Under the pieces are notes generated by a model, which was not told the origin of the DNA, did not search any database, and was given only the letters and a program-made list of their open reading frames with translations. A program made the translations under genes and the position numbers. A DNA stretch of 64,000 nt from Elusimicrobiota bacterium (GTDB lineage Bacteria; Elusimicrobiota; Elusimicrobia; UBA1565), in contig JACRDO010000132.1 in NCBI GenBank assembly GCA_016212885.1, forward strand, positions 28,779 through 92,778. Reading direction: 5' to 3'. This document shows positions 1-24,593 of the stretch, piece after piece. Each line of letters starts with the position of its first letter. The stretch's first letter is position 1.

Positions 1-3000
1 GGCGGCCAAGGCGGCGATGACGACAGCGCGCTACAGCTTGGCCGCGGCCGCGCTCAGCGGCAAGGTCTATGCGGTGGGAGGAATGGGCGGCACGCAGAAG
101 GAGAACGAGGAGTACGACCCGGCCGCCAACACCTGGGCCTCGAAGGCTCTGATGACTACGGCCAGGAACAGCCTGGCCGCGGCCGCGGTCGGAGGCAAGG
201 TGTACGCGGTGGGCGGAACGGGCGGCACCGAAAAAGAGAACGAGGAGTACGACCCGAACGTCAACACCTGGGCGTCGAAGACCGCGATGACCACGGCCCG
301 CTCCGGCCTGGCCGCCGCGGCTGTGGGGGGGAAGATCTACGCGGTTGGAGGCTCCGGGCCCTCGGGAGCCAACGAGGAGTACGACCCCGCAACCAACGGC
401 TGGACATCCAAGACCGCGTTGACCATAGCCCGCTCCGGCTTGGCCGCGGCGGCTGTAGGGGGGAAGATTTACGCGGTTGGAGGGACCAACGGAGTCGTCT
501 TGTCCTCCGCCGCGGAGTATGATCCGGGAAGCAATACCTGGTCCGCGAGAGCTCAGATGCCCACGGCCCGTCAGCAGCTGGCTTTGGCGGCGACGGGAGG
601 CAAGCTGTACGCGCTGGGGGGCATAGGCGGCGCGAACAATGAGAACAAGGAGTACGACCCGGGCTTCTCGCAGAAATTCACCGGGCTGACCCCGAACACG
701 CTCTATACCTTCAAGGCCAGGGGCCGCAACGCGAGCGGGGCCGAAACCCCCGAAACTCCGGCGATCTCGACCTATACCTTGGCGCTGGCGCCCGGAGGGC
801 TCGTGGCCGCGTCCTCTTTCACGAATGTCGCCTCTACCGGGGTGCGGGTGAACTGGTCATCTGGGACCCCTGCGGGCTACAATCCAATCGGGACATTGTA
901 CCGGCTCGAGCTGGCCACGGCCGCGAGCTTCACGACCCTGGCGGGGTCTTCCCAGACCTACAACACCTACGCCGGCCTGACGGGGCTGACCCCAAGCACC
1001 AAGCCTTATTTCGCGCGGGTCGAGGCGATCAGCGGCGCAGGCATTCCCACCTCCTGGCTCAGCCTCGGCTCCCTGTCCTCAGGGACCCTGCAGGTCACGA
1101 TCAGCACTTTCGCCGGGACCGCGGGCAACTCCTACGCCATCGCTTGGGGAGACTACGACAACGACGGCAATCCGGACCTGGCCGTCGCGAACTATGGACT
1201 GAACATCCTGCTCCTGCGCAACAACGGAAACGGGACCTTCGCCCAGTCCACCATCCTTGCCACCGCGGGCAACTATACCGGCATTGCTTGGGGGGACACC
1301 GACAACGACGGCCTCCTGGACCTGGCCGTGGCCGTCAACGTGGGGGATGAATTCATCCTGCACAACGACGGCGGCGGGGCGTTCACCCCCAATACCCTGA
1401 CCGGCTCCGGCGGCAATTCCTACGCCGTCGCCTGGGGAGACTATGACAACGACGGCCGCCTGGACCTCGCGGTGGCCAACGACTTGGCCCAGGACGACTA
1501 TGTGGCGCGCAACAACGGCAACGGGACGTTCGCCATCGTCCCACTGACCCAGACGCTCGGCAATTCGAGGGGCATCGCCTGGGGGGATTACAACAACGAC
1601 GGCTACCTGGACCTGGCCATCGGCAACACGGACAAGGATGTCGTCATCGTGCGCAACAACAACGGCGTCAGCTTCTCGACCTTCGCCGTCACGGGCTCCG
1701 GCTTTGCCAATGGCGGCATAGCCTGGGGGGATTACGACAAGGACGGCTATCTGGACCTGGCCTTCGCGCTCAATACCGGCATCGTGGTCCTGCGCAACAA
1801 CGGCGGAGACGGCACGTTCGCCAAGAACACGATCTCGGCCCCCGGCAGCAACGCCGGCGTCGCCTGGACGGATTACAACGGCGACGGCAGGCTGGACCTG
1901 GCGGTCTCCCGCTCGGGCGGCCAGGCCCAGATCCTCCTGCGCAACGACGGCGGGGTGTCCTTTACGACTGTGACCTTCGCGGGGTCAGCGGGGGGCGCGG
2001 TTCGCGGGTTCTCCCTTGGGAACTTCGATTTGAGCGGGGGCCCGGATATCGCCCTGGCCAACGACGGCGGGAGCGACGAACTGCTGCTGCATAACGACGA
2101 CCAATTGGCCCATGCAGCCCCCGGCGCGCCCTCAGCCGGCTTCTCCGCGACGCTCCAGGAGTACAGTCTCTTTTCCAGCTCCGGAATCCTGGCCTTGAGC
2201 TGGGGCAACGGGACCGACGCGGAGACCTCGACAGCTGCTCTCCGGTACCTCCTCCGCATCGGGACCACGGTCGCCGGCAGCAGCACGACCTGCAAGATCC
2301 CGGCCAAGTTCGGGTTGGACGCGGGCGCAAGCGGCGGGTCCTTCCTCTATAGCACCAGGATATCCTCGGCTGCGGCCGGACTGCGCCTCATCCTGCAGAA
2401 GGAGACTACGGTTTATTGGGCCGTGATGACGCAGGACGGCGAGGGCCTGCGCAGCGCCGAGTCGGCCGAGCAGACGGCCTTTCTCGCCGCGCCTGGGCTT
2501 GTGACGGACCTGCGCGTGAGCGCGATCGTCTCCACGGGCCTTGGGGCGTCTTCCATGACCGTGACCCTGCAGTGGACCGCTCCCGGGGACAACGGCTACT
2601 CCGGGGCCATCACGAACGGCGCCTTCGAGATCCGCTGCTCCACGACAGAGGCCATCCTGAGCACCTCCGCCTACGCAGCTGCACAGGTCGCGGTCTCGCT
2701 GGCCACGTCGGTGGTCCCCGGCGCCCTGCAGACCCACAGCATCCCGTACCTGAACGCCGCGGCGACGCATTACTTCGCGCTCACCATGAAGGACGGCTTC
2801 GGGGCGCGTTCGGCCCTCTCCAACCCGGCGACGGCTCAGAGCTACGTCCTCCGGCTTCCAGCCAGCGCAGGGAACCTCTACGGGCTCGCCTGGGGGGATT
2901 ACGACGGCGACGGCCGGCCGGATATGGCCCTCTCGTACTACGGCGGGAGCGTGGTCCTCATGCATAACGACGGCAGCGGCGCCTTCACTCAGACGACCGT

Positions 3001-6000
3001 TCCGGGCACCTCGGGCAGCAATACGGGAGTCGCCTGGGGCGATTTCAACAGCGACGGACGGCTGGACCTCGCGGTGGCCGTGGACGGCTCAGACGAGTAC
3101 GTCCTGCGCAACAACGGCGACGGCACGTTCACCAATGTCCCGGTGACCGGCTCCGGCGGCAGGTCCTACGCGGTCGCCTGGGGGGATTACGACAACGACG
3201 GACTGCTGGACCTCGCGGTGGCCAACGAGACCGCTCAGGACGACCTTATCGCGCGCAACAACGGCAACGGGACCTTCACCCTCGTTCCTTTGACCCAGAC
3301 GATAGGCAACTCGAGGGGCGCGGCTTGGGGCGACTTCAACAACGACGGGTTCCTGGACCTGGCCATCGCCAACACGGATAAAGACGTGGTGCTCGCGCGC
3401 AACCTCGGCAACGGGACGTTCTCTACCGGCACCATCGGGGGCACGGGCGTCTCCACCGCGGCTGCGTGGGGAGACTACAACAACGACAATTATCTGGACC
3501 TGGCCGTGGCCAATTCCGACGGCGTCGCCCTCATGCGCAACAAAGGCGACGGCACGTTCGCCAAAGTCTGGATCGCAGGGACGGCCGGCAACAACGCAGG
3601 GCTCGCCTGGGCGGACTTCAACAACAACGGCTTCCTGGACCTCCTGGTGTCCCGCCCAGGAGGCTCGGCGCAGCTGCTGCTGCGCAACAACGGCGACGGG
3701 ACGTTTACGCAGACGCTTCTGCCCCTGCCCGGGAGCAACGTCGTCAACGTCTCCTGGGGCGATTTCGACGCTGACGGGGATTTGGACATCGCCGCCGGCA
3801 GCCGCGGCTGGATCGACGCGTTCATCTTCCGCAACGACGCGGCCCTGGCCCATAACGCCCCGGCTGCGCCGGTCTCCGGCTTCTCCGCCACGTTCCAGGA
3901 ATACGCCGCTTTTTCGAGCACAGGCGTGCTGACCCTGAGCTGGGGCGACGCCTCCGATGTGGAGACGCCGACCAGCGCGCTCAATTATCTCGTGCGCGCC
4001 GGCACGGTGGTCTCCGGCAGCAGCGCGACGCTCAAGATTCCCTTCAATTACGGCCTCGACGGCGCAGCGGGCGGGGGCTCCTTCCCCTACGGCACGAGGG
4101 TTTCCGCCCTCCAGCGCGGGCTAAAGTTCGCCGGCTTCAGCAAAGGAGCGACCATCTATTGGGCGGTCGCGGCCGAAGACGGAGAGGCCCTGCGCAGCGG
4201 CGAGTCCGCGGAGCAGACGGCGAATCTCACTCCGCCGGCAAGCGTCAACAACCTCGCGGCCGCGCAGGACGCCGCAGTCGAGACCTCCTCGGTTTCCTGG
4301 GTCAGGCTCACCTGGACGGTCCCGGGGGAGAACGGAACGAGCAATCCGCTTCTGCCCGGGGCCCGCTACGACCTCCGCTGGAGCACCGTCGCTCCCGTGG
4401 CCCTGGAGTCCGACTACAACAGGGCCCCGAACCAGAGCCTCATCCCTGCGGACGGGGAGAGCCCGGGCGCGACGCATACCCAGCTCCTAGCGGTGACTGC
4501 GGGCAAGACCTACTACTTCGCGATGACGACGCTGGACAGCTGCAATTCCCGCTCCGGCCTGTCGAACGCCGCGAACATCCCGATGACCGCCTGGCTCCAG
4601 GAAGTCATCACGGATGCGGCGCCGCCCGCGGCGCTCCAGGGCGACACTACGGCGTTCCTCAAGCTCCGCCTCTGGACCAACTTGGGCTCGCTGAGCTGGA
4701 CCAAGCTCCGCGTGCGCAAACTGGGGACCCTGCCGGACGCCGCGGTCAAGAATGTGGCGATCTACGGCGACGCGAATACCAACGGGATCTTCGACTCCGG
4801 GGACACGGCGGCGCTCTACAGCGGCGTGCCGGCCGTGTTCGCCTCCAGCGCCGTCACCCTGGCGGTCCAGACGGTGGGGCAGACGATCAGCAACTCGACC
4901 CGGACATATTTCCTGACCCTGCAGCTCGAGCCCTCCTATCTGCCGCAGGACGGCTCGACGGCGGCGCTCAAGCTCGACGGCGAGGCCTTCAGCGTCATAG
5001 GCGGCGGAGTGCTGGGGACGGACTTCCCGGGACTGCTGCTCGACGGGATAGACGACCGGGTTCGCGCGAGCGACTCGGCGGTCCTCGACCCCCCCAACCA
5101 GATCACGCTCGACGCCTGGGTTCGCACGACGGATCCCGGCCCCAACCGGTCCATCATCACCCATTCAAACGCCTCAGGCACCGACGGCTACCGGCTCTGG
5201 CTCAACGGCTCGACCTGCGGCGCAGGCGTTCCGACGCTCTTCATCGGCCCGAGCGTCCTCTGCGCCAACCGCGGCGGGAGCCCAGTCTCCATCGCAGACG
5301 ACCGCTGGCACCAGGTTTCGGCCGTGTACAGCATCGCCGGAGGACTCGGACAGCTGATGTTCATCGACGGGGAGATGCTCTCCACGGGGCCGGTGACGGG
5401 ATCGATAAGCGACTCCGCAAGCGAGCTCGGGGTCGGAGGCCCCAACAACTACGCCGGGAATTATCTCAACGGGAAGATCGACGAGGCGCGCATCTCGCAG
5501 ACCGCGCGCTACACGTCGTCCTTCATCCCTTGGCGCCGCAGCGACACGGACTACAACACGGTGCTCCAATACCATTTCGACGCGATGGACGGGACCGGCA
5601 CGGTGGTCACGGACGCCGCGGGGCAGGTGACGGGCATCCTGGACGGACAGGCCCGGGGCTACGGGCGGTCCACGGCGACGGTCGTCGTGGACGCGCAGGA
5701 CATGATGATGTCGAGCGCGACCAGCCTCCTGCCGGACACACTCTACCGGAACGCGGTCAACGTCCCGGTGCTGAAATTGCAGCTTTGGGCGAGTCAGGAC
5801 AACGTCATCATCAACCGCCTCTCGGTCGCGCAGACCGGCACAGGCGCATCCGCCGGAGTGGCGAACCTCCGCCTCTACCGCGACAACGGGGACGGATACT
5901 TTCAGCCCACGCTGGACCAAAGCCTCACGCTCGGGCAGGTCTTCTCCGTGAACAAGGCGACCTTCGACCTCCTAGGCGCCACACCGCCCGCGCCCCAGCA

Positions 6001-9000
6001 GGTCTGGTCCTCCACGAAGACCTACTTCGTCGTCTGGGACGTGACCGGCGGCGCGGAGACAGGGAAGAGCCTGGGCCTGGCGATCTCGACCGACGACTTC
6101 GTCCTGGCCGGCGCGACCGACGCCGTTTCGACCGCGGCCTTCCCGCTGCGCGCAAGTACGGTGCCCGTAGTGTCCGCCCGGGTCTACGTGACGCCCGAGA
6201 CCCCGCCGAGCGCTTGGGTCAACGTCTCCTCCCTCGTTTTCATAGGCGACTTCACGCTTGGGAACGTGGACCATTTCTATTATCTATTCGACCAAAACCC
6301 GGGGACCCAAATAAACGGCGGCGGGAGCGAGACGCTCTGGACCATCGGAAAAGCGACGGCTACGGCGACAGCGGACGGCAGCAGCTGGTATTTCCACGTG
6401 CGGGCCTTCGATTATCTGGGCCAGGGCGGGACCCAGACGGACTTCGGGCCGTACTTCGTGGACCGCACGCGGCCGACAGGGGCCTCGTTCGTCCACTTCA
6501 ACTCGACGGGCGGCGCGCTCGGTCAATCCCAGGTCAACGACCTGGCCCAGCCGGTGACGGCCCAGCTCAGCGTGCAGGACTCCGGCGCCGGGCTCAATGT
6601 CGTCGGCCCGGCCCCGCTCGCCCCCAGCCCCGGGACCGTCTCTCTCTGGCGCCTCGACGACACGAGCGGAGCCGTTTGGAAGGACTCCGGCCCCGCGAGC
6701 ATCAGCCTCTCCAGCGTGGGAGTGGTCTCGCGCGGCGCCGGCCGCTTCGGCTCAGGCGTGCTCCTGGCCGGGAGCGGGGATCTGCGCAGCGCCTCGCCTG
6801 CGGGCCTGCCGACAGGCGCCGTGCCCCGCGCCATAGAGGCTTGGATCAACCCGGTTTCGACCCAGGGGACATTGGGCCTCGTGAGCTGGGGCACCTCGGG
6901 CGCCGGCACGCTCATGCGGTTCTCCATGGTCTCCGGGCAGCTGGCCGCGGACATGGGCGGGATCACGGTTTCCGGAGGTCCCGTGCTCAGCACCGGGGTC
7001 TGGCAGCATGCGGCCTTCAGCTACGACGGCAGCGCCGCGCGCCTCTATCTCAACGGCGCGCTCGCAGCCAGCCAGAGCGTCGGCGCCCTGGCGACGGCGC
7101 TGGGGACGCTTTTTATCGGCGCGACCGAGTCCGGGGGGAGGTTCTGGGGCTCGATCGACGAGGTCCGCATCATGAACAGCGCCCTTGCCGATGGGCAGGT
7201 CTATGACGACTGCACCCGCGGCCACCCGTATTTCGTCGCCTTCTCCTCCTCCGCGGGCAGCTCCTGGCAGGTGGTCGTGGCCACGGGCGCAGGCGCGGGG
7301 GCCCGCGTCGGCTTGGACGGCGCCCATGGCTCGACGGGCCCGCAGACCCTCAAAGTCAAGGGGCTGCCCCTGAACGTCTCGACGAGCTCGGCCGCGGGCG
7401 CCCTCGCGACGAACCAGGTCATTTTCTACCAGACCGACAGGGCGGGGAACACGAATATTCTGGGCCCCTACGGCATCCTCGTGGATACGAACCCCCAGGT
7501 CGCTTATTCGACCCCGATCCTGCCCGGCGACGGCATGTATACCGGCGCCCGGCCATGGTTCGAATGGACCGGGCCGAGCACCGCGATCACGGCCGGCATG
7601 GGGGGCGCCAACGGCCTCGGGGGGAGCTTCTACCTGCAGGTCTCCTCGAACGACCCGACCTTCGCGGACCCCAATATCGTGCTCAGCATTTCGACGCCCG
7701 CCATCATGGGCGACAACACCCTGCCGAAGGTCTATGGGGTCTACCTCTCCACCCACTCGCTGGGCGAGGGAGCCACATACTATTGGCGCATACGCTCGAA
7801 GAGCTTCTTGGACGTCCTGGGCCCCTGGGGCCCCTGGAAGAGCTTCGTCGTGGACGCGAGCACGCCCGCCGCGGCCAACTACCGGATGTACAGCGCGACC
7901 GGCGGCGTGGTCCTGGAGGGCCAATACACGGACCTGATGCTGGGCGTGACGGCGCAGACGACGGTCACAGACAACCTGAGCGGCTTCTCAAAGAGCTTCC
8001 GCTTCGACCCTGCCGCCGGCACCGTGGCCCTGTGGCACTTCAGCGAGCGCGACGGCCTCGCGCCGAAGGACGCCAGCGGCAACAACAACACCGCCGCGCT
8101 CCTGGGCATCAGCGGCGGCCCGCCCGGCTACCGGACATCTCCATTCGGCGCAGGCCTTCGCTGCGGCGGATCCCACGTCTTCCGGACGTCGAACGCGCAG
8201 TTCGACTTCCCCGCGAACAGCAACATGACCTTCGAGGCGTGGGTGAACCCGGACGATGTCTCCGGCATCCAGGCCCTGGGCGGAGTGGGCAGCGTCACTT
8301 TCCCCGGGGGCAACTGGCTGCTGCGCATCAGCGACGGGAGGCTCTTCTTCTCGAACAACACCGGATTCATCAACAGTCCGGCCATGATGTCGGCGGGCGT
8401 CTGGCAGCACATCGCGATGACCCTGCGCGGGGCCAGGGTCGCCTTCTACATCAACGGGGTGCAGGTCGCGGCGGGCCTCTCTGGCTCCGGCGGAAACAGC
8501 GGCGGGCCTTCTGTCCAGCCGTTCACCCTGTGCGCCGCGGTCGACAACGACGGGGTCACCTATCAGTCTCCATATTCCGGCATGATCGACGAGGTCCGCG
8601 TCCTGAACTACGCCGCGGATCCGCTGCAGATCGCGGCCGACTACGCCGCGACCCTGTCGGGCATCTACGCCGTCGAGTACTCCACGACAGCTGGCGCGTC
8701 CTGGATCGTCGTGAGCGCCACGGCCCCTGCCTCCGGCTGGGCCCACCTGGAGCTGGGCGGGTCGGAAGGCAGCGTGGGCCCGGAGGCATGGTCCGTGCGC
8801 AACCTGCAGCTGGTGCACTCCACTTCCGCGGCCATCGGCTACCAGGCGACCAACCAGATACGCTTCAGCGTCCCGGACCGCGCGGGGAACACGCGCCTCA
8901 GCGGGCCCTACGCCGCGATCGTCGATACCACGGTCGCGGCCGCGGTCTCGACGCCCTCCTACCCGGCGAACGGCGCCTTCCTCACCCAGCAGCCCAATTT

Positions 9001-12000
9001 CCTCTGGAGCGGGCCGAGCACGAAGACAGCTTCCGGAATGGGCTTGGCGGCCTCCTATTTCCTCGAGGCCGCGGCCGATCCCGCCTTCGCCAGCCCGGTC
9101 ATCTCCATCTCCACGCCCGTGATCATTCAGAGCACCTTCGCGGCCGCGACGTTCGGAGCCTATCTCTCGACTTATACGCTGATGGATGCCACGACGTATT
9201 ATTGGCGGGTCCGCTCGCGCGATTTCCTCGGCCTGCTCTCGCCGCCCCTGAGCGTGTCCAGCTTCGTCACGGACCTGGGGGCGCCCGCGGGCTCCGCCTT
9301 CCGCAGCTTCAATTCGACCGGCGGCGCGACGGCGGAGGACCTCGTCAACAACCTGACCTCGAACGTCACGGCTTACGTCACCTTCCAGGACCCCGGCTCC
9401 GGGCTGAAGGTCTCCCCGGCCGCGGGCGCGATGCCCTTCGGCGTCATCTACTCGACGACCGGGGGCGCAGGCAATTCGGCCTGGGTCGATGGGGGCCGGA
9501 CAGCGGAAGGAGGCCTGCCGGAATCCTGGTGGGACCCCACGGTCGCCACGATCACGGCGCTGGCGACGTTCCAGAGCCGGCTCTACGCGGGCGCGGCGGG
9601 TCCCGGGAGGACGTTCGAATACGACGGGACCCAGTGGTCTCAGTCCGGAACGTTCCCCAGCGACGTCCTGACTCTGAAGGAGTTCCGGGGCAAGCTTTAC
9701 GCCGGGCTGTCCGGGGGCTCGGTCTACTCGTTCGATGGGATAAGCTGGAACTTGGCCGCGTCTCTTCCGGCGGCCCGGGTCAACGCCTTGGCGGAGCATA
9801 ACGGGCGGCTCTACGCCGCGACCGGAGCCGAGGGCCAGATTTTCGCGTTCGACCCGGACGCCGGCGGCTGGTATGAGGTCTTTCGGGCCACTGAGCCGGA
9901 GTTCTTCTCCCTTAAGTCCTACAATGGGCGGCTCTTCGCGGGAGCGGGCCCGGACATCTACTCCTTCGATGGGAGCACCTGGACCGTGACGAACTGGATC
10001 GGAGGGTCGGCCCGCGCCTTCGAGGTCTACCGGGGCCGCCTCTACGCGGGCACGAACATCTCCGGGTATATCTACGCCTATGACGGCAGCGTCTGGACGC
10101 GTCCCTTGGACATCAGCGAGGATTTCAACCGGGCTCTCGGCGTCTTCGGCGGCCGCCTCTACCTCGGCGCCAGCCTGCCGAGCAACGGCCGGATCTACAT
10201 GTACGACGGCAACACCGGCCCCGGCGGGCTGCTCGTCTATACCCTGCCGACCCCGGCCGACTCGATCTACGCCATCGCCAGCTACGGGAACCGGCTCTAC
10301 CTCGGCGGCACGAGCCCCTCCGGCGCGAAGGTCTACGTCTCCACGCCTCTGGCGGTCAGCCTCACGGGCTTAGACGGCGCCAAAACGCCGGAACAACTCA
10401 AGATCACGGGGCTTAATCCGATCCAGTCCGTCAACGCGAACATCTGCAATGGGAACTGGGCCTGCACGGCCACCAACCAGGTCCGCTTCACGGCTGCGGA
10501 CCAAGCGGGCAACATCGGCCAAGCTGGGCCCTTCGCGATCCTGGTCGATCCGTCGCTTTCGCCTCCCACGGCGCTCTATCCGCCTTCCGGCTCATTCGTC
10601 CGCTCCAGCAGCCCCACGTTCGTATGGGCGGAGTCGAGCGCGATGTCGATCCACAACGTGCAGGTCTCCAGCCAGGCGGCTTTCACGAACCTGAGCCTCG
10701 ACAGCATCGCGAACACGCCCGCCTACACTTCTCCGGTTGCGCTTGCGAACGCCACCACCTATTATTGGCAGGTGCGCAGCCGCAGCCCAAGCGGCATCTA
10801 CTCGGCCTTTTCGGCAGTCAACGCCTTCGTCATGGACCTCAGCCGGCCCACGACCTCGGTGTTCCTCCATTTCGGTTCGACCGGAGGCCCTCTCGCAGAG
10901 AGCCAGTTCGGGAATCTGGCCGCAGGGGTGACGGTCGAGATCACTCTCCAGGATATCGTCTCCGGCTTGGACCGCGGGCCGAGGCGCCAGCCGGTGAGCG
11001 GCGCCGCGGCGCTCTATCCCTTCGACGAGGGCTTCGGCATGTACGCCTCGGGTCTCGGCGGGGAATACCGCCTCGCCTTCAGCTCCGGCGCGTCGTGGGC
11101 TCCAGGCCTCATCAGCTCCGCGGTCTTGACCGGCGGAGCGACCTATCTCTACAACGCCTCTCCAAACTACAACCCGGCCTGGCCCGCGGTCGGCCTGCCG
11201 ATCGCGGGCGGGACGAGGACAATCGAGGCCTGGATCTACCCGCTGGACGGGCAAGGAGGCGGCATACTGCATTACAGCGACTTCCGGCTCCACATCAGCG
11301 GCAGCTGCTCCGGCCCCGTTCCCGGCAACAGCTATCTCTGCGTGAATGCAAGCCAGGGGGCCGCGTATACCTTCACCCCCAGCCAATGGCACCACGTCGC
11401 CTACACCTATGCCGGAGGGACGCATACCCTCTACGCCGACGGAATTTTGCTGGGCTCCTTCCAGCAGATGCTCAATACTCCGGGGGCCGGGCCGATCTTC
11501 GTCGGGACAGCGACCGACTGCGGCGCATTCCGCGGCCGCATCGACGAGCTGCGGATTCTCGCCAAGGCGCTCTCGGCCGCGGAGGTGGACTCGGGCTATC
11601 GGCTTTCGGGCGCCTTCCGCGTGTCCTACTCCTCCGACGGGGGCGCCAACTGGACGGTCGTGACCGCCACGGCGCCGGCCTGGGGCCCGCACCTGGTCTT
11701 GAGCGGCCCGCCGGGGAGCACGGCCCCGCAGACCCTGAGGCTCGAGAACTTCTCGCTGGCGCAATCGACGATCCTGGCGACCGGGGCGTACGGCACGAAC
11801 CAGGTGGTCTTCTCGGTCTCGGACCAGGCAGGCAACGAGGCGACGGCAGGCCCCTTCACTGTCCTGGTGCAGACGTCCGTTCCGCAGCCCATATTGACTT
11901 CCCTGACCCCGCGCTCGACGGAGTCCATCTTCGCGACCGCCATCGCGACCGACCCCCTGAGCGGAGTCATGGAATACCGCTTCGAGGCGTCCCCCAACAA

Positions 12001-17077: not shown

Positions 17078-17168
17078 CACCCCTGAGAAGCGCTGAAATA
17101 TCCTGATTTTTTCGAGCCCCGGAATTCCGAAGTTTCCTCATGATTTCTTCGTGATTTAAGCCGATCCG

Positions 17169-17186
17169 CCGCTAAACTAATAGCGG
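17169..17186 (+). promoter_or_regulatory. Inverted repeat CCGCTA-aactaa-TAGCGG (6-bp stem, 6-nt loop) 10 nt upstream of the ATG of the PorV/PorQ-like gene. It overlaps the only purine-rich (GGGGA) candidate Shine-Dalgarno sequence and may control translation initiation.
   Basis: Read directly from the sequence ...tccgCCGCTAaactaaTAGCGGggacggactATG. It sits in a 118-bp AT-richer intergenic spacer after the giant gene. Confidence 0.3.
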
Positions 17187-17195
17187 GGACGGACT

Positions 17196-18773
17196 ATGTT
17201 CGCAAGGTTTATTCCATTGGCGCTTCTGGCTCTGGCGCTGCGGGCCTCGCCCGCGTGGGCCCAGGCGATCGGAGGCCAGCCCGGCGAGATATTCTCCTTC
17301 GGGGCCGGGGCCCGGGCGCTCGCCATGGGCTCGGCCTACACGGCCGTGGTCAACGACGTATCTTCGGTCTACTACAACCCCGCCGGGCTCGGGCTTCTGC
17401 CGGCGCGGGAGATCTCCCTCATGCGGGCGTTCCTCTACGGGGATGCGACCTACGACTACATCGCCTACGCGCAAAACAACCGCAAGAACGCCGGCGGCTG
17501 GGGCGCCGAGTTCATCCAGTTCAAGGTCGGCGGGGCGAGCGGGCGCGACCAGGACAACAACGAGACCGGGCAGTTCGGCTACTCTGAAAGAGCCTTCGGC
17601 CTCGCGGCAGCCTGGCGCGGGCTCCTGCACCCGCGGCTCTCCCTCGGCGCCAAGGTGAAGATGATGCAGCGCGGCTTCAGCGGCGCCGGCAACGCCGCCT
17701 CCGACAGGCTCTTTGGCATCGACTTCGGCGCGCAGATGGGGCCGTGGGTCGGCGAGCGCCTCATGCTCGGACTCATAGTGCAGAATGTGATGGGCTTCAA
17801 GCAGGGCGACACGGAGGATTCCCTCAAGCTGCTGCTGCGCCTCGGCGCGGCCTACAAGGTCATCGGGCCGCTCTCCGTCGCGGCCGATGTCTCCAACAAC
17901 AGGGAGTTCCGCGTGGGGACGGAGTACTCCATCGGGTTCCTGGCTCTCCGGGTCGGCCTCGCCCAGCAGGGCATGACCTTCGGCGGAGGGCTGCTCTTCA
18001 AGAACCGTTATTCCGTGGACCTGGCGATGCTCAACCATCCGACCCTCGGCATGTCGCAGAGGATCTCGCTCGGCTACCGGTTCGCCGGCGCCGCGGGCGC
18101 GGGCGAGAAGTCGAAGAAGATGCGGTTCTACGCCGAGGAGTTCCTCGCCAACGCCCAGGCCGAGCTGAAGAAGAGGAACTACCTCAAAGCCCTCAACGAC
18201 TTCTCCGCCGGCCTCGGCATCGACCCCAAGCGCGGGGCCGAGTGGCGCTCGAAGACCGACCGCCTGCGCCGGCTCCTCAAGCGGATGGGCCTCGAGGCCC
18301 ATCCGGAGGACAGCGCCACGCTCGCAGAGGACTCGCAGCCCGCCGTCGTAGCTTTCGCGGCCATAGAATCCTACATGGGCCGGGAGGAGGAGCGGGCGAT
18401 GACTCTGGCCCACGCGGCGGTCGGCCTGGATACCGCCAAGGGCGCCTTCGGACGGCTGCTCGACTCGCTGGCAGCGCTGACGGGACATGCGATCCAGCGC
18501 GACCAGCTCCTGCCGCCGCTGCGGCTGGCGGAGTTCAAGATGAAGCGGGCCATGGACGCCATCTATGCCCGCAGGTTCGAGGCGGCCGTGACCCTGCTTC
18601 GCGAAGCCCTCTGGCTCGACCCCGGCAACGTCATGGCCTGGACCCGGCTCGGCTCGGCCTTCTTCGCCTCCGGGGACCGCCCGAAGGCCGCGGAGGCGTA
18701 CCGAGAGGCGCTCCGGCTCAACCCGGCCGATGAGAAGCTGAGGCAGTTCGTCAGGTCCCAGGGGTTGGAGTAA
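17196..18773 (+). CDS. Outer-membrane PorV/PorQ-family-like beta-barrel protein with a C-terminal TPR repeat domain (525 aa).
   Basis: Signal peptide MFARFIPLALLALALRASPAWAQ. N-terminal hallmark GARALAMGSAYTAVVNDVSSVYYNPAGLG (the PorV/PorQ/FadL-like motif G.R.LAMGGAY.A..D.SA.YYNPAGL). Alternating beta-strand pattern to about residue 305. C-terminal ~220 aa is TPR-like (AWTRLGSAFFASGDRPKAAEAYREALRLNP). Lies directly 3' of a CTD-bearing giant protein. Confidence 0.6.
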   Translation: MFARFIPLALLALALRASPAWAQAIGGQPGEIFSFGAGARALAMGSAYTAVVNDVSSVYYNPAGLGLLPAREISLMRAFLYGDATYDYIAYAQNNRKNAGGWGAEFIQFKVGGASGRDQDNNETGQFGYSERAFGLAAAWRGLLHPRLSLGAKVKMMQRGFSGAGNAASDRLFGIDFGAQMGPWVGERLMLGLIVQNVMGFKQGDTEDSLKLLLRLGAAYKVIGPLSVAADVSNNREFRVGTEYSIGFLALRVGLAQQGMTFGGGLLFKNRYSVDLAMLNHPTLGMSQRISLGYRFAGAAGAGEKSKKMRFYAEEFLANAQAELKKRNYLKALNDFSAGLGIDPKRGAEWRSKTDRLRRLLKRMGLEAHPEDSATLAEDSQPAVVAFAAIESYMGREEERAMTLAHAAVGLDTAKGAFGRLLDSLAALTGHAIQRDQLLPPLRLAEFKMKRAMDAIYARRFEAAVTLLREALWLDPGNVMAWTRLGSAFFASGDRPKAAEAYREALRLNPADEKLRQFVRSQGLE

Positions 18774-18811: not shown

Positions 18812-21331
18812 TTGAGCGGTGACATGGACGCTGTCATCATCGTCCTGATCCCGGTGCTGTTCCTGACGCTGGCGGCCAGCATGCTGGTCGTCAGCCAGGT
18901 TTCCGGCTTCTTCCAGTCCAACAAGTACTCCCGCAAGCGCCAGCAGGACCGCATGGAGATCCAGCGGTTCATGGCCCAACTGGCCGGCGCGCAGAGCCAG
19001 GTCTTTGCGCGCAGCAAGGAGCTCGAGCGGCTCTCGGCGAACCTGCAGCTCAGCAACCAGGAGCTGGCCCGGCTCAACAGCATGAAGACGAAGTTCCTGT
19101 CGATGGTTGTCCACGATATGAGGACCCCGCTTGCCTCCATCAAGGGGTTCGGCGAAATGCTCAGCCGCCAGACGCTCCCGGCGCAGCAGACGAAGTATGT
19201 GAACTATATCGTCAGCGGCACGGACCAGATCAACCAGCTGATGGCCGACCTCACGGACCTCGCGGTCATCGAAGCAGGCAAGCTCAAAATGGAAAAGCAG
19301 CCATTCGCCTTGTCCGACATGGTCAATGACCTCGTGCCCGGGATTGGCCTGCAGGCGCAGAAGAAGGGCGTGATTTTCACGGCGCCGGAGCCGCCGCGGG
19401 GGATCACCGTAATCGGGGACAGCTTCCGTCTGCGCCAAGCGCTCCAGAACTTCCTCACCAACGCGGTCAAATTCACCCCCGCGGGGGGAAAAGTCGAGCT
19501 GAGGGTCAGCGTGGGCCCGCGGGGCGCGCTGTTCCAGGTCAAGGACACGGGCCCGGGCATCCACGCCTCCGAGCGCAAGCGCATCTTCGAGAAGTTTTAC
19601 CAGTCGCAGTTCGGGGACCCGAAGGCGCGCCAGAAGGGCTGGGGGCTCGGCCTCTCGATCGCGCAGGAGATCATCCGCTCGCACCAGGGGGAGATGGGGG
19701 TGGATTCCGCCGGGCTCGGCAAGGGCGCCACCTTCTGGTACCGCATCCCGCTCAAGCCCTCCAGGATGGCGGCCTACGCGCTCGCAAAGACCGCGGCGGC
19801 CGTCCTCCTGCTGGCCCTGCTCCTGCCGGGGGCCCGGGCCCAGCAGACGCTCCCGATCGAGGAGAAGGCGAAGTTCGAGAAATCCCTCGAGGACCGCGCC
19901 AACACGATCCTGCTCCACATCCTGGGGCCCAACCGCGGGCGTGTCGTAGTCGACGCCACGCTCGACTTCACCCGCATCGAGAAGTTCGACGTCAAGAGCG
20001 GAGCCGTATCGCCTGACCGGGAGACCCTCTACCTCTGGGAGAAGGTGGGAGCCCAATCGGGCGGCCAGGACCTGCTCCCGGGCATCCCGCCCCAGGAGCA
20101 GCTGCCGAACGCGAACCTGGCGCGCTCCTACGAGCGGCAAAACTCCTTCCCGACGGCCTTTATCAAGAGACTCAAGGTGACGGTTATCTTGGACGGCGCT
20201 GTCGGCGCCGACCAACGCAAGATCATCACGGATGCCCTGACGGAGGCTCTCGACCTCAAGAAAGATCGGGGAGTGGATGCAAACGGCTTCACGCTCAAAG
20301 ACGAAATGCTGATCGTTCCCGCCACCTTCGCCCCCGCATGGAAGACGGTCTGGTACACCCCGGAATCCGCAAGCCTCCTCTTCAAATACGCGCTCATCAG
20401 CCTGATGACGCTGATCACCCTCATCGTCGTCGCGGCCTGCTTCCTGAAGCTCGCGGAGGCGATGGACTCGATGGCGCAGGCGCAGGCCCATCAGCTCCAG
20501 ATGGACTTCGGCCAGCAGGGCGCCGACCTCGCCGGGAAGGAAGAGGAGGAGAAGAAGAAGAAGGAGGAGGAGGCCAAAGCCGAGAGCGCGGAGGCCGCCT
20601 CCACCAAGATCGTCTTCAACGTCAAGGTGGAGCAGATCGAGACGCTCATCGAGATGGTGCGCAGCCAGGACGCGGAGAACATCTCCCTCATCGCCGCGCA
20701 CCTCCCGCCCGACGTCAAGAAGGCGTTCCTGGCCAAGCTCCCGCCGAGCGTCTACAGCGAGGTGATCTTCTATCTCGGCCGCGTGCGCTTCATCGACCAG
20801 GAGGTTGTCTCCACCGTCAAGGACGAGCTGGAGCGGCGCCTGGAGAGCGCGGTCGGCGGCCGGTCGAACCTCCTCGGCATGATCGAGGCCTCGGACCTCA
20901 AGTCCAAGCGCGAGCTCCTCAAGCTGCTCGAGGAGCGCGACCCCGACCTTGCGCGGCAGCTGCGCGAGCAAATCCTGCTCTTCGAGGACCTCTCGGACCT
21001 CGAGGAGAAGGACTGGTCCTTGGTCTTCTCGGTCGTCACGCTCGAGGAATGGGCCTTCGCGCTCTACGATGCCCCGGAGGATCTGGTCGAGGCGCTCAAG
21101 AGCCAGATGCTTCCGAAGACCTGGGCCATCCTGTCCCAGATGATGCAGGTGGGCCGTCCCTCGGAAAGGGCCATCGAGGAGGCGCACGAGCGCATCGTCA
21201 ACTCGGTCTGGAAGCTGGTTCAGGACGGCCGCATCACCAACCCCATCACCCGCCGCATCGAGCGCATGGCCGCCCGGCCGAAGGAAGAGGGCCCTCCCCC
21301 CTTGGTCGAGGGCGCCGCGGAGCTGGGCTAG
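18812..21331 (+). CDS. Fusion protein (839 aa): N-terminal TM helix + sensor-less histidine kinase (HisKA + HATPase_c) - TM helix - ~180-aa periplasmic domain - TM helix - acidic/Lys-rich linker - FliG middle and C-terminal (motor torque) domains. Overall FliF-FliG-like topology.
   Basis: H-box SMVVHDMRTPLASIKGFGEML. N/G boxes FLTNAVKFTPAGGKVELRV...DTGPGI...GWGLGLSIAQEII. Hydrophobic helix AAAVLLLALLLPGARA. Periplasmic segment with KVTVILDGAVGADQRKIITDALTEAL. Second TM LLFKYALISLMTLITLIVVAACFL. EEEEKKKKEEEAKAE linker. FliG_M-like ENISLIAAHLPPDVKKAFLAKLPPSVYSEVIFYLGRV. FliG_C-like LLFEDLSDLEEKDWSLVFSVVTLEEWAFALYDAPEDLVEALKSQMLPKTWAILSQMMQVGRPSERAIEEAHERIVNSVWKLVQDGRI (compare FliG ...FEDI..LDDR.IQ..LREVD...LALALK....EL.EK...NMS.RA...L.ED.E.LGPVRLKDVEEAQQKIIN..R.LEE.GEI). 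No stop codon separates the kinase and FliG parts. The ATG at 18824 is an alternative start. Confidence 0.75.
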   Translation: MSGDMDAVIIVLIPVLFLTLAASMLVVSQVSGFFQSNKYSRKRQQDRMEIQRFMAQLAGAQSQVFARSKELERLSANLQLSNQELARLNSMKTKFLSMVVHDMRTPLASIKGFGEMLSRQTLPAQQTKYVNYIVSGTDQINQLMADLTDLAVIEAGKLKMEKQPFALSDMVNDLVPGIGLQAQKKGVIFTAPEPPRGITVIGDSFRLRQALQNFLTNAVKFTPAGGKVELRVSVGPRGALFQVKDTGPGIHASERKRIFEKFYQSQFGDPKARQKGWGLGLSIAQEIIRSHQGEMGVDSAGLGKGATFWYRIPLKPSRMAAYALAKTAAAVLLLALLLPGARAQQTLPIEEKAKFEKSLEDRANTILLHILGPNRGRVVVDATLDFTRIEKFDVKSGAVSPDRETLYLWEKVGAQSGGQDLLPGIPPQEQLPNANLARSYERQNSFPTAFIKRLKVTVILDGAVGADQRKIITDALTEALDLKKDRGVDANGFTLKDEMLIVPATFAPAWKTVWYTPESASLLFKYALISLMTLITLIVVAACFLKLAEAMDSMAQAQAHQLQMDFGQQGADLAGKEEEEKKKKEEEAKAESAEAASTKIVFNVKVEQIETLIEMVRSQDAENISLIAAHLPPDVKKAFLAKLPPSVYSEVIFYLGRVRFIDQEVVSTVKDELERRLESAVGGRSNLLGMIEASDLKSKRELLKLLEERDPDLARQLREQILLFEDLSDLEEKDWSLVFSVVTLEEWAFALYDAPEDLVEALKSQMLPKTWAILSQMMQVGRPSERAIEEAHERIVNSVWKLVQDGRITNPITRRIERMAARPKEEGPPPLVEGAAELG

Positions 21332-21334: not shown

Positions 21335-22459
21335 ATGGCGGAGAAAGTCGACTTCCTTCTCGCCTCCCTGCGCGGCCAGCCACCGCCCGAGGCCCCGCCG
21401 TCCGTCGAGGCCCAGGCGGCTGCGGCCGCCTCGGAAGAGCAGCTCGCCCCTCTGCGCTCGAAGGTCGAGGAGCTCGAGCGCAAGCTCGCCGAGCTCTCGG
21501 CGCCGCCCGCCCCGCCGGAAGGCGCGGAGGCTCCGGCGGAGCCGCCCAAGCCGCCGACCGAACTGATGATGTTCCTGCACACGCGCATGGAGCTTCTCGA
21601 GCGCCGCCTGGAGCTCGCCCAGCAGGAGGCCCTGCGGGCCAACCTGGTCCTCCGCGAGCGCGAGGAAGCGCAGAAGAAGGCCCAGGGCGAGGTCGAGGAG
21701 CTCTTCCGCTCGATCCGCGAGCAGGAGCGCTCGGCCCGCTTCGACCGGAGGCTGCGCGAGCAGTACTCCGCGACCCACTCCCGCGTGGAGGAGCTGGAGG
21801 CCCGGCTGGCCATGGCCCAGCTGCGCATGGTCCCCGCCGACGAGGTTCTCCGGTCTATCGAGAGGGAGGAGGGCTTGGGCGAGCTCCGTTCCCGGCTGAA
21901 GGAGCAGCTTTCAAGGATGTCCGGGGGGGAGCCGTCCGTCGGCGCCCCGGCGCCGGCCCCGCCCCCAGCGCCTCCGGCAGGGGCCCCGGACCGGCCCGAG
22001 GGACCCGCACGGCCCGCGCAGGACGCCCCGTTCAACTATAGCGAGCTTCCGCCCCTTTCCATCGTGACGGCCAAGATCGCCGATCTTGAGCTTCGGCTCG
22101 CGGAGGCCGAGAAAGCCCGCGAGAAGGAGCGCCAAAGCCGCCTCCTCTGGGAGAACAACGTCCTTCAGGCGCTCCGGCAGTCCTCCGGCCGCTGGCAGAA
22201 AGCCGGCGGAGCCGGGCTTCTGGTGGAGGCGACTTTGGAGAGTATGGTAGAGTTGCTCAAGAAGAGGGACCTCCTCGCCGGGGAGACGGCTCAGATCCTG
22301 GACAGGCTCCGGTCCGAGCCGCCGGGCTCGGGGGAGGAGCCCCTCCTGCGGGCGCGGCTCGCGGAGCTGCGCAAGAGCATCGAAGAGCTCCAGGGCGAGC
22401 TCGACAAGAAGATGGCGATCGTCAACGCCTGGACCGAGCGGAATAAAGGCAAGGATTAA
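21335..22459 (+). CDS. Coiled-coil protein with Pro/Ala-rich low-complexity segments (374 aa). Possibly a FliH-like or scaffold component of the adjacent motor genes.
   Basis: ORF starts 3 nt after the FliG-fusion stop and ends 1 nt before motA (TAAATG). Heptad-rich segments (LRSKVEELERKLAELS, LELAQQEALRANLVLREREEAQKKAQGEVEEL, IADLELRLAEAEKAREKERQ). No recognizable catalytic motif. Confidence 0.5.
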   Translation: MAEKVDFLLASLRGQPPPEAPPSVEAQAAAAASEEQLAPLRSKVEELERKLAELSAPPAPPEGAEAPAEPPKPPTELMMFLHTRMELLERRLELAQQEALRANLVLREREEAQKKAQGEVEELFRSIREQERSARFDRRLREQYSATHSRVEELEARLAMAQLRMVPADEVLRSIEREEGLGELRSRLKEQLSRMSGGEPSVGAPAPAPPPAPPAGAPDRPEGPARPAQDAPFNYSELPPLSIVTAKIADLELRLAEAEKAREKERQSRLLWENNVLQALRQSSGRWQKAGGAGLLVEATLESMVELLKKRDLLAGETAQILDRLRSEPPGSGEEPLLRARLAELRKSIEELQGELDKKMAIVNAWTERNKGKD

Positions 22460-23197
22460 ATGGACATTACGACACTCTCCGGCATCGTCGGCGTCTTAGC
22501 CATGGTGCTCATCGGGGGCTTCACCGGCGAGCTCTCCGCGGTCTTCCTGAACGCGCACGGCATCGTGATCGTCTTCGGCGGGACCGCCGTCGCCATGCTC
22601 ATCAATACGCCGCTGCGCTATGTTCGGGAGACGCTCCTGGCGTTGGCGGAGCTCTTTCGGGGAGACCGCTTCAGCGACCCGGGCGAGCTGATCCCGGTGC
22701 TGGTGCGCCTTTCCGAGCAGGTCCAGGCGCACGGACTCGGGGCCCTGCGGGGCATCGACGAAAGGGCCGCGGGCGGCTTCCTCGGCCAGGCCGCCACCAC
22801 TGCGATGGAGTACAACAACCCCGACTTCGTCCGGCGCGTGCTGGAGACCGAGGTCAACAACAGGGTGGACCGGGCCAACGAGGTCATCAACGTGGTCCGC
22901 ACCATGGGCGTTGTCGCACCGATGTTCGGCCTGCTCGGCACCCTCATCGGCATCGTGCGGGTCATGGCCGTGCTCACCGACCCGGTGAAGGTCGCCCCGG
23001 CCATGGCTGTCGCCATCACCACGGCCTTCTACGGCATCGCCTTGGCCAACCTGGTGGCGGTCCCCATGGCCGGCAAGATGCGCTTCAGGCTGTGGGAGGA
23101 GATCAAGGTCCGGGCGATGGTCATTGAGGGCGTCATCGGCATGATGCAGGGCACGGTCCCCCTGGTGCTCGAGCGCCGCCTGCAGGCTTTCAAATAG
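22460..23197 (+). CDS. motA: MotA/PomA-family stator proton-channel subunit (MotA/TolQ/ExbB superfamily), 245 aa.
   Basis: Four-TM architecture with a large cytoplasmic loop between TM2 and TM3. C-terminal signature TTAFYGIALANLVAVPMAGKM. N-terminus MDITTLSGIVGVLAMVLIGG typical of MotA. Confidence 0.85.
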   Translation: MDITTLSGIVGVLAMVLIGGFTGELSAVFLNAHGIVIVFGGTAVAMLINTPLRYVRETLLALAELFRGDRFSDPGELIPVLVRLSEQVQAHGLGALRGIDERAAGGFLGQAATTAMEYNNPDFVRRVLETEVNNRVDRANEVINVVRTMGVVAPMFGLLGTLIGIVRVMAVLTDPVKVAPAMAVAITTAFYGIALANLVAVPMAGKMRFRLWEEIKVRAMVIEGVIGMMQGTVPLVLERRLQAFK

Positions 23198-23200: not shown

Positions 23201-23881
23201 ATGGCCGTCTACCGCTTCAGGAAGGAGGAGCTCGAGGGACATCTCAACAGGAACGCCCTCTGGGCGATCGTCTACGGGGACATGATGAGCTACCTCATGA
23301 TCCTCTTCCTCCTCCTGCTCTCCACCGCGCTCATGAAGAACGTCAAGAAGGAGGATAGGCCGGAGGTCGAGAAGTCCCTCATGGAGATCCAGGTGGTCTT
23401 CGGCGGCAAGGTGGACAAGGCGTACGAGGAGAAGAGGTCGCGCGACGAGAAATTCTTCAAGATCTCCGAGGCGCTGAAGGGGATGCAGAGCGCCAACGTC
23501 AGCGTCATCGCCACCGAGAAGCTCGTCCGCGTGCAGCTCGGGGAGGGCGTTCTCTTCGACTCCGGCAGCGCGGAGCTCAAGGAGAGCGCCGCGCCGCTGC
23601 TGGAGCCTATCGCCAAGCAGATGCTCGTCCCCGACAACCAGATCCGCGTCGAAGGCCACACCGACACCGTCCCTATCCGAAAAGGCAAGTACAAGTCCAA
23701 CTGGGAGCTCTCCATGGCCCGCGCCTATTCGGTCGTCCGGACGCTCGAGGGGATGGGCGTCAAGCCGGAGCGGCTCTCCGGCATCGGCTACGGCGAGTAC
23801 CGCCCGGTCGCCGCCAACGACACCCCTGAGAACAAGGCCAAGAATCGCCGCATCGAGATCAACCTGCTGCGGTCGGAATAG
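23201..23881 (+). CDS. motB: MotB-family stator subunit with a C-terminal OmpA-like peptidoglycan-binding domain, 226 aa.
   Basis: Single TM helix carrying the conserved protonatable Asp (WAIVYGDMMSYLMILFLLLL). OmpA domain GHTDTVPI...NWELSMARAYSVVRTLEGMGVKPERLSGIGYGEYRPVAANDTPENKAKNRRIEI. Confidence 0.85.
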   Translation: MAVYRFRKEELEGHLNRNALWAIVYGDMMSYLMILFLLLLSTALMKNVKKEDRPEVEKSLMEIQVVFGGKVDKAYEEKRSRDEKFFKISEALKGMQSANVSVIATEKLVRVQLGEGVLFDSGSAELKESAAPLLEPIAKQMLVPDNQIRVEGHTDTVPIRKGKYKSNWELSMARAYSVVRTLEGMGVKPERLSGIGYGEYRPVAANDTPENKAKNRRIEINLLRSE

Positions 23882-23897: not shown

Positions 23898-24593
23898 GTG
23901 CGCGCGCTCATCCTAACGGCGGATAACGCCTTTGCCCTCAGGCTGACGGGCCTGCTGAGAGGCCTGGGCTTGTCTGTCGATGTCCTCCACAGCCTCTCCT
24001 CGGCCGCGGCCAGGACCCGCTGCGAGCTGGCGGTGGTGGATTGGGACGCGGTCCGCTCCGGGCCGGCCCAGGCCCTCCCGCGCCTGCGCGGCTTGGCGTG
24101 GAGGGTGGTCCTCCTGGCAGGGGCCGATGTCGTCTATGGGCCGCAGATGGCCGAAGCGCTCGCCTGGGGGGTCTGCGACGTCGTCTTGAAGACCCTCAAG
24201 GATCCGGCCCTGGCGGGCCGGATCGCGGCTCAGCTTAAGTCCCGGCGCTACTCGGCGATCGAGCCGCGAGGCTGCGGATTGCGGCTGGACAAGGCGGCCC
24301 GGCGGGTGTGGGCGCGCCGCGGACGCGGCTGGAAGGAGATCCCCGCCCTGCCGCCCAAGGAATTCGATCTCCTGTGCGCCTTCTTGGAGCACCCGGGGGC
24401 GGCGCTCCGGCGCGCGGCCCTCCTGGAGCGCTTCTGGCCCGGGAGATCCGGCGACGTCAACCCGGAGACCGTGGACCGGCACGTCCAGCGGCTCAGGCGC
24501 CGGCTCGGGGCCGTCGGGTGGCTGATCGTTTCGGTGCGCGGCGTCGGCTACCGCTTCAGTTTAGGAGAGAGTCCCCATGACAAACGCGGATGA
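23898..24593 (+). CDS. OmpR/PhoB-type winged-helix transcriptional regulator with an atypical (possibly pseudo-) receiver domain. GTG start.
   Basis: C-terminal Trans_reg_C motif LPPKEFDLLCAFLEHPGAALRRAALLERFWPG...VDRHVQRLRRRLG...VSVRGVGYRF. The N-terminal receiver-like fold keeps a candidate phospho-Asp (LAVVDWD) and a Lys (VVLKTLKD) but lacks the N-terminal acidic DD pair. Confidence 0.7.
   Translation: MRALILTADNAFALRLTGLLRGLGLSVDVLHSLSSAAARTRCELAVVDWDAVRSGPAQALPRLRGLAWRVVLLAGADVVYGPQMAEALAWGVCDVVLKTLKDPALAGRIAAQLKSRRYSAIEPRGCGLRLDKAARRVWARRGRGWKEIPALPPKEFDLLCAFLEHPGAALRRAALLERFWPGRSGDVNPETVDRHVQRLRRRLGAVGWLIVSVRGVGYRFSLGESPHDKRG

Follow-up and report, generated by a model that had tools for sequence, protein, structure and literature searches.

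A conserved gene module of Elusimicrobiota that joins a kinase-FliF-FliG fusion and MotAB to PorV-family and giant surface proteins

Introduction

To our knowledge, FliG and the S-ring of FliF have been described only as parts of the flagellum, and full-text searches agree with this. In gliding Bacteroidota, the gene of a giant adhesin, sprB, is followed by that of a PorP/PorV-family partner, sprF. Both sorts of gene occur side by side in the stretch of DNA analyzed here, a window of 64,000 nucleotides (nt) from Elusimicrobiota bacterium (assembly GCA_016212885.1, contig JACRDO010000132.1, positions 28,779 to 92,778). A giant surface protein is followed by a PorV-family barrel, as in sprB-sprF, and then by a fusion of a histidine kinase with FliF-like and FliG domains, a coiled-coil protein, MotA, MotB and an OmpR-type regulator. 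This gene set recurs across the phylum and very probably forms a real, non-flagellar functional unit. The Agl-Glt machinery of Myxococcus (AglRQS, Glt, CglB) resembles the arrangement proposed here in concept, since there too a proton motor of the inner membrane acts across the periplasm on barrels of the outer membrane and on a surface adhesin. It differs in its TolQR-like motor in place of MotAB, the lack of a FliG-like rotor and unrelated envelope proteins.

A few Elusimicrobiota genomes carry a complete flagellar set, while most free-living members keep motAB and fliG without flagellar structural genes, in a role called "enigmatic" (Uzun et al., on magnetotactic Elusimicrobiota, bioRxiv 10.1101/2022.07.08.499144). 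These orphan genes are probably those of the present module. The remark was made at the level of KEGG assignments, without the FliF-FliG-kinase fusion, the operon or a link to PorV-like genes and T9SS-type (type IX secretion system) C-terminal domains (CTDs). The Elusimicrobia preprint of Meheust et al. holds nothing on motility. Full-text searches of the literature gave no account of the fusion protein, of the operon or of a FliG/FliF-MotAB module tied to CTD/PorV genes, and no paper on T9SS in Elusimicrobiota.

Gene Organization of the Module

Seven plus-strand genes fill positions 1-24593 and are separated by 118, 38, 3, 0, 3, and 16 nt. The open reading frame (ORF) coordinates bear out the gene order and the same-strand spacing of at most 118 nt that a first-pass annotation, made from the sequence alone, had given, and Pfam and NCBIfam families agree with the content it proposed for the giant, PorV-like, kinase-FliG, MotA, MotB and regulator genes. 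Its count of nine same-strand genes was too high: seven lie in this stretch, and an eighth, for a major facilitator superfamily (MFS) transporter (24577-25938), overlaps the regulator gene by 17 nt.

The Kinase-FliF-FliG Fusion Protein

The third gene (18812-21331, plus strand) reads as 839 amino acids (aa) from a TTG codon. Translation likely starts at the ATG at 18824, and the database copy, hypothetical protein HY922_12930 of an Elusimicrobia metagenome-assembled genome, is 835 aa long and 100% identical. The first transmembrane (TM) segment (TM1, residues ~6-30) is followed by HisKA (91-156, with H101), HATPase_c (202-315) and TM2 (~320-342). The second half consists of a FliF RBM3/collar region (343-518; RBM, ring-building motif), TM3 (~519-545), a charged linker, FliG_M (611-681), a Gly-Gly hinge (682-683) and FliG_C (706-809). 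HisKA (E 1.3e-16) and HATPase_c (E 2.6e-25) match Pfam above the cut-offs, and H101, the N-box (217), G1 (245), and G2 (276) are conserved in the family. FliG_M scores 34.6 bits (E 2.2e-8, cut-off 25) and FliG_C 60.5 bits (E 2.2e-16, cut-off 23.3); the latter confirms the FliG_C domain expected at residues ~700-810, for which a profile check had been named beforehand.

The Pfam model YscJ_FliF_C matches weakly (E 1.8e-3, under the cut-off). A sequence profile compared with the PDB finds FliG at E 5e-27 and Salmonella FliF at E 1.6e-4. Hydropathy gives three TM segments, and on this topology the kinase and FliG parts are cytoplasmic and residues 343-518 periplasmic. Residues 320-839 were modelled with AlphaFold2 on 33 homologues (mean predicted local distance difference test, pLDDT, 77.8), and the model matches FliG in Foldseek at E 8e-10 and the S-ring structures of FliF RBM3/collar at E ~1e-4; other ring-building-motif proteins rank below FliF in the fold comparison (PrgK 9.0, SpoIIIAH 8.4, EscJ 8.3). 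By Pfam, topology and fold matches, the kinase, the membrane-spanning FliF-like segment and the FliG middle and C-terminal domains do belong to a single polypeptide, as the first reading of the DNA had it. In sum, a kinase is followed by a minimal FliF, consisting of RBM3/collar alone, and this in turn by FliG_MC in direct fusion.

The likeness to the flagellar basal-body motor lies in the FliF RBM3/collar fold, the FliG middle and C-terminal domains, a rotor that faces the cytoplasm, and the hinges, with the Gly-Gly linker invariant and the "MFXF" hinge retained as LLFED. Unlike flagellar FliF, the fusion has a single ring-building domain of ~175 aa between two TM helices and lacks both RBM1/2 and the FliF C-terminal tail. 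FliG_N has no Pfam match, FliG_M coming after TM3 and the charged linker within the fusion polypeptide; the covalent fusion takes the place of all these parts. The EHPQR motif has become (E/Q)-D-P-x with R160 replaced by S, N, or H (33 sequences), so that the FliM-binding motif is not kept, and neither FliM nor FliN is encoded in the 64-kb window. The features that dock FliG and FliF into the flagellum are thus all missing, while the ring-forming domain, the hinges and the stator-facing domain are kept. The module further differs from the flagellar motor in the fusion of a kinase to the rotor, in its neighbours, a CTD adhesin and a PorV-family protein, and in having no adjoining genes for an export apparatus, rod, hook or filament; none of these was found in the 64-kb window or within ±10 kb of the related loci. 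We infer that the source genome has no flagella. Engineered FliF-FliG fusions of Salmonella and Vibrio (Vibrio PDB 8z4d) likewise combine an M-ring protein and FliG in one polypeptide. However, these are laboratory constructs in complete flagella, whereas the natural fusion is much reduced, carries a kinase and has no flagellar genes nearby.

At the site of the FliF beta-collar, the fusion carries an insertion (397-437) that is strongly conserved, with invariant W409, LPG422-424, and Y440, and is modelled with low confidence. The FliF beta-collar is ordered only within the assembled ring. The kinase has no sensor domain, and its highly conserved TM helix is kept even where kinase and rotor are encoded apart, so that what the kinase senses would be the machine. 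Homologues without the kinase begin with a signal peptide. One related locus, L024, holds two tandem FliF-FliG genes (5714-7414 and 9008-10903).

Conservation and Distribution

One genome per GTDB species was scanned with a single peptide pattern, and the ORFs around the hits were classified by BLAST against the window proteins. The module was found in 32 Elusimicrobiota species-representative loci, so that the conservation in relatives that had been set beforehand as a check on the first-pass annotation was borne out. Three gene orders occur. Type 1 is that of the window (giant, PorV-like, kinase-FliF-FliG, coiled-coil, MotA, MotB, then usually the regulator); type 2 is the same with the kinase as a separate adjoining gene; and type 3 runs PorV-like, kinase, MotA, FliF-FliG, coiled-coil, MotB. 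The PorV-like gene is present in 26 of the 27 loci with enough upstream sequence, the exception being a truncated contig. Where enough downstream sequence is available, MotA and MotB are each found in 24 of 24 loci. A kinase occurs in 27 of 28 loci.

More distant members of the family are also linked to surface-protein genes. The deep paralogues, which score ~130-200 bits, include L040, with a 17,141-aa protein, a small CTD protein, a PorV_fam protein with tetratricopeptide repeats (TPR), FliF-FliG and long coiled-coil proteins. L042 has a protein above the cut-offs of both T9SS sorting models (type A TIGR04183 and type B TIGR04131), a PorV/PorP-like gene with TPR, a kinase and FliF-FliG. Because the linkage is kept through fusion, fission, reordering and deep paralogy, it is strong evidence that these genes work together.

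The fusion protein has ~80 close clusters, and all named ones are from Elusimicrobiota except one partial sequence labelled NC10. A profile search of 1.84 billion proteins, a set that carries no taxonomy, gave 153 clusters (50% identity) of full-length FliF-like+FliG proteins at E <=1e-30. The named distant FliF-FliG homologues are again from Elusimicrobiota, bar two odd labels (P0265, RLE71917.1, and P0003: a 4.9-kb contig binned as a Thermoprotei archaeon, and the partial copy labelled candidate division NC10). Both labels are most likely binning errors, and the module is likely restricted to the phylum.

The Stator and Its Contact With FliG

The stator genes are of flagellar type by Pfam, NCBIfam and PDB matches, as had been claimed. 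MotA (22460-23197, plus strand) has four TM segments with the channel prolines P154 and P202, matches MotA_N and MotA_ExbB (E 4.4e-22) and aligns over its full length with MotA/PomA chains of the PDB (E 2e-32). It lies far from TolQ/ExbB, with 147 bits against NCBIfam PomA vs. E 6e-8 for TolQ. MotB (23201-23881, plus strand) carries the channel Asp D27 ("YGDMM") in a TM segment and has MotB_plug (E 4e-8) and a peptidoglycan-binding OmpA domain (E 6e-22); NCBIfam assigns it to MotD/MotB/MotS. In the stator, then, the module is again like the flagellar motor: a MotA/PomA type with the MotB Asp, the plug and the peptidoglycan-binding domain.

The contact between rotor and stator was compared in an alignment of 33 family members with the E. 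coli sequences, checked against PDB chains 1lkv and 9luc. Residues are numbered after what we take to be the E. coli FliG and MotA sequences, cross-checked on the same two alignments. The cytoplasmic loop of the window MotA, "SEQVQAHGLGALR", is basic where E. coli MotA has E98. At the proposed contact the family keeps a conserved pattern of its own, "KTWxxxEQ" in FliG and "AEQx(Q/R)xxGxxAL(R/K)" in MotA, and the replacement of FliG R281 by K (28/33) is the sole conservative change among the charges of the torque helix. Of the 33 sequences, 18 have R, 11 Q, and 4 H at MotA position 90, which varies together with FliG 280: R occurs with an acidic residue there in 16 of 16 type-2 loci and in L003, and Q with Pro (12/12). 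Likewise, Q at MotA 98 goes with loss of FliG K281 (3/3). This pattern fits a contact that is maintained but rewired, for which we propose the putative pairings of MotA K/R98 with FliG E287, MotA E87 with FliG K281 and MotA R90 with FliG D/E280. Charge complementarity between MotA 98 (K/R) and FliG 281 (K) was rejected, both residues being basic.

The PorV-Like Protein and the Giant Surface Protein

The second gene (17196-18773, plus strand) encodes a 525-aa protein with a signal peptide, a probable PorV/PorQ-family beta-barrel (~30-300) and a C-terminal helical/TPR domain (~300-525). The match to NCBIfam PorV_fam (E 1.3e-22) covers profile positions 7-326 of 326, with further matches to PorV2 and PorQ; Pfam gives UPF0164 and TPR. 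Two orthologues score above the PorV_fam cut-off (L020 with 146 bits, L040 with 105 bits). Because the termini of PorV-type barrels are periplasmic, the TPR extension should by analogy be periplasmic too.

The giant surface protein is represented in the window by its C-terminal 5,691 residues (2-17077, plus strand). Its frame, open from base 2, begins partway through a Kelch repeat, which shows that the window start truncates the gene. The full length of 7,028 aa comes from a gene call on the same locus in another assembly (L044, 1-8254, Logan contig SRR12113407_15668). Pfam domains include a Kelch propeller, at least 13 FG-GAP repeats, several LamG, fn3/Ig and GEVED. At the C-terminus, ~95 aa (about 16790-17074) make up a probable T9SS-type CTD. 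This region matches Pfam FlgD_ig with 30.8 bits (cut-off 27), and in NCBIfam it comes closest to the CTDs of PorU (E 1.2e-8) and PorZ, which are left uncleaved and remain bound to PorV and PorQ. The giant ORF ends with the CTD in every type-1 locus, and across these loci the CTD is 41-67% identical and more conserved than the body of the protein.

Between the giant and PorV-like genes, several loci encode small proteins of 100-190 aa that are barely more than a signal peptide and a CTD. Such CTD-only proteins are encoded at L003 8040-8432, L005 7982-8386, L007 7956-8387, L017 468-878, L040 7869-8348, and L042 1134-1535. The few named ones come from Elusimicrobia/Elusimicrobiota, Endomicrobiales and one Margulisiibacteria.

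The module resembles T9SS and Bacteroidota gliding in a giant repetitive adhesin with a probable CTD, the gene of a probable PorV/PorP-family barrel immediately after it, an inner-membrane proton motor of the stator family and a putative dedicated two-component system. Its motor, however, is FliF-FliG with MotAB rather than GldLM/PorLM: PorL/PorM (GldL/GldM) have no match in the module or the window, where the only stator-family genes are of MotA/MotB type. In further contrast, the barrel is extended by TPR, Elusimicrobiota do not belong to the FCB group (Fibrobacterota, Chlorobiota, Bacteroidota), and the module has no SprA, PorK/N, PorU or PorZ genes, nor are SprA/Sov, PorK/PorN or PorU/PorZ encoded elsewhere in the 64-kb window.

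The Coiled-Coil Protein and the Regulators

The coiled-coil protein (21335-22459, plus strand; 374 aa) has no TM segment and no signal peptide and is cytoplasmic. It consists of a ~90-residue helix (76-164), a Pro/Ala-rich linker and three C-terminal helices (AlphaFold2 model, pLDDT 78.7). There is no match in Pfam or NCBIfam, and Foldseek against the PDB returns only generic coiled coils (best E 0.1). The family is specific to the module: 37 homologues were found, every named one from Elusimicrobiota, and in related loci the gene keeps its position.

The regulator (23898-24593, plus strand) adjoins the module in most type-1 loci. The OmpR likeness proposed for it holds for the OmpR/PhoB-type winged-helix domain (Trans_reg_C, E 2.5e-18) and fails for the receiver half, which is degenerate and has no Response_reg match in Pfam. 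Orthologues mostly keep the phospho-acceptor Asp and have lost the acidic pocket and the equivalents of T83 and K105. The protein is a possible partner of the kinase; alternatively, it may act independently of phosphorylation or may not be the partner of the kinase. Canonical stand-alone receivers adjoin the module in L002 and L003. In L002, a gene for a FlgO/CsgG-like lipoprotein (16339-17190) stands directly 3' of motB.

About 10 kb downstream of the module, the window encodes a response regulator (34861-36216, minus strand) that combines a GGDEF domain with a canonical receiver (E 1e-27). Its gene has an equivalent relative position in L001. The protein could be the cyclic di-GMP (c-di-GMP) output of the orphan kinase.

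Surroundings of the Module

The MFS transporter that follows the regulator on the plus strand (MFS_1, E 3e-23) is found after the regulator in L001 and L009 as well, and the order differs in more distant loci. The 17-nt overlap and the shared order suggest that the transporter may be co-transcribed with the module in this clade; its membership of the system is uncertain. A scan of 16.9-26.7 kb for promoters and terminators gave nothing above shuffled expectation. The rest of the window (66% GC overall) holds housekeeping genes, and those for ATP synthase, RecG, RelA/SpoT, an MsbA-like ABC (ATP-binding cassette) exporter, LpxB and LpxI indicate a diderm chromosome. Among ~30 other ORFs scanned with Pfam and NCBIfam (24.6-64 kb), none matched a flagellar or T9SS family. 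Four large ORFs (30527-33283, minus; 52807-54567, plus; 54564-56192, plus; 48226-49518, minus) have coding-like GC at third codon positions and no Pfam or NCBIfam match at E <=1e-3.

A Proposed Machine and Its Rivals

The module fails some of the tested features of both the flagellum and T9SS and borrows parts from each; it is therefore regarded as a system of a new kind, assembled from part families that are already known, with a predicted function. We judge it about as probable as not that the module encodes an envelope-spanning machine in which a rotor-stator motor of flagellar descent, powered by protons and with two-component feedback of its own, is coupled to a giant adhesin anchored by the PorV-like protein. 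In this motor, the RBM3/collar domains would assemble an S-ring-like ring in the inner membrane, to whose cytoplasmic side each subunit would contribute one FliG middle/C-terminal unit. Engineered Salmonella FliF-FliG fusions, including a deletion fusion without FliG_N, reportedly give working motors. Peptidoglycan-anchored units of MotA5B2 type would conduct protons through the MotB Asp and push the FliG_C helix, and the ring would turn or bear force. The periplasmic collar would engage the TPR domain of the PorV-family barrel, in place of a rod, and the barrel would in turn hold the T9SS-type CTD of the adhesin. The work of the motor might then move, deploy or tension the adhesin, possibly resulting in gliding-like translocation over surfaces, and the sensor-less kinase, fused or adjacent, would signal the motor's state to response regulators.

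Several observations weigh against such a motor. The canonical torque charges are lost: in the 33 sequences FliG K264 is replaced by W or Y, D288 by Q (31/33), and D289 by M, T, or S, R297 is variable, and MotA position 98 holds R and K in 15 sequences each and Q in 3, so that E98 has given way to a basic residue in 30 of 33. The family-specific pattern may or may not transmit torque, and the co-variation of MotA and FliG spans only two or three independent lineages. In both T9SS-type parts the window scores fall just below the curated cut-offs, with 80.8 bits against 90 for PorV_fam and 18.3 bits against 23 for Por_Secre_tail (TIGR04183). Most type-2 loci have large upstream proteins without a recognizable CTD, and the route of the 7,028-aa protein across the outer membrane has no explanation in the module. 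Among the deep paralogues, L040 has no motAB within 10 kb and L042 none on its 9-kb contig, so the rotor protein may also work without a dedicated stator. The claims of the first-pass annotation fare accordingly. The PorV/PorQ-like protein stands by its full-profile match and its TPR domain, and the CTD of the giant by FlgD_ig and the PorU/PorZ matches, both being qualified by their sub-threshold scores. The undescribed joining of FliG-MotAB to a T9SS-like adhesin is upheld by the domains, the linkage and the silence of the literature, and is weakened by the lost charges. Rotation, export and gliding stand as hypotheses, the form in which that annotation had put them.

A more far-reaching version of the motor reading is tentative and, on balance, doubtful. 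Here the module would be a fourth kind of bacterial surface machine, in which a MotAB-turned ring of FliF RBM3 and FliG drives a CTD-anchored giant adhesin for gliding or adhesin translocation, with the TPR domain of the PorV barrel as a "shaft", a rotor kinase that senses load, no export gate or axial structure, and neither flagella nor GldLM. In an alternative form, the module would be a relic of a stage at which the core of MS-ring, FliG and stator was independent of type III secretion.

Among the rivals to the motor-adhesin reading, the one that survives best, although unlikely, is that FliF-FliG and MotAB energize secretion or attachment in the role of PorLM/GldLM, with the PorV-like protein as a shuttle and no later movement of the adhesin. 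CTD and PorV-family parts adjoin the motor genes (a recognizable CTD being absent from most type-2 loci), small CTD-only proteins occur at many loci, and T9SS itself, according to PMC10951265, uses a stator-type motor of the same superfamily together with the two-component system PorXY. A general secretion route is, however, weakly contradicted by the CTD search, which among 86 candidates scored found 83 small CTD-only proteins and no enzymes or other cargo. The module also has no translocon-like gene, and its rotor has only a short periplasmic part, unlike GldM/PorM, which crosses the whole periplasm.

Somewhat less likely still is a mechanosensory device, in which the rotor-stator pair would be the input module of the kinase and no engine for motility or export; the load on the link of adhesin, PorV-like protein and TPR, or the proton-motive force, would alter the engagement of the stator, and the kinase would control expression or c-di-GMP. 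This would suit a kinase that lacks a sensor domain and keeps its conserved TM helix even as a separate protein, as well as the near-constant presence of the kinase, the adjacent regulators and the receiver-GGDEF gene 10 kb away. On the other hand, the family members P0076-78 and L040 have neither a fused nor an adjacent kinase, and a full stator with plug and peptidoglycan anchor, together with the retained FliG hinge motifs, suggests real mechanical work. Sensing is partly compatible with the motor-adhesin reading and does not exclude it.

That the genes are ordinary or remnant flagellar ones, divergent fliF, fliG and motAB of a flagellum encoded elsewhere or the decaying remains of a lost one, lying beside adhesin genes by chance, is very improbable. 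All motor parts are homologous to flagellar proteins, and complete flagellar sets do occur in a few members of the phylum (bioRxiv 10.1101/2022.07.08.499144). However, FliG_N, the FliF C-terminal tail, RBM1/2, and the EHPQR motif are all absent, and 32 species keep the genes linked to those of the PorV-like, kinase and coiled-coil proteins, as do rearranged orders and deep paralogues. Every reading frame has stayed intact across 37-100% identity, a sign of purifying selection rather than decay. An anti-phage defence system like Zorya is effectively refuted, since in a PADLOC scan the ZorB matches of MotB (E 7e-25) reflect generic MotB/OmpA homology and no ZorA, ZorC, ZorD, or ZorE was found, the MotA is short, of flagellar type and without the long ZorA tail, and relatives carry the locus at the same chromosomal site, surrounded by housekeeping genes.

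Implications

The module would offer a concrete candidate for the "enigmatic" motAB and fliG of non-flagellated Elusimicrobiota, magnetotactic ones included. If the motor-adhesin reading is true, the torque generator of the flagellum can work on its own as an engine for another output, and the fusion would be a natural minimal rotor for structural and biophysical study. As the module uses different charges, it would also be a test case for the rewiring of a rotor-stator interface. Anchoring of surface proteins by CTD and PorV-type partners would then extend beyond Bacteroidota and the FCB group, and the module would bear on the separable origins of the flagellar motor and the export apparatus.

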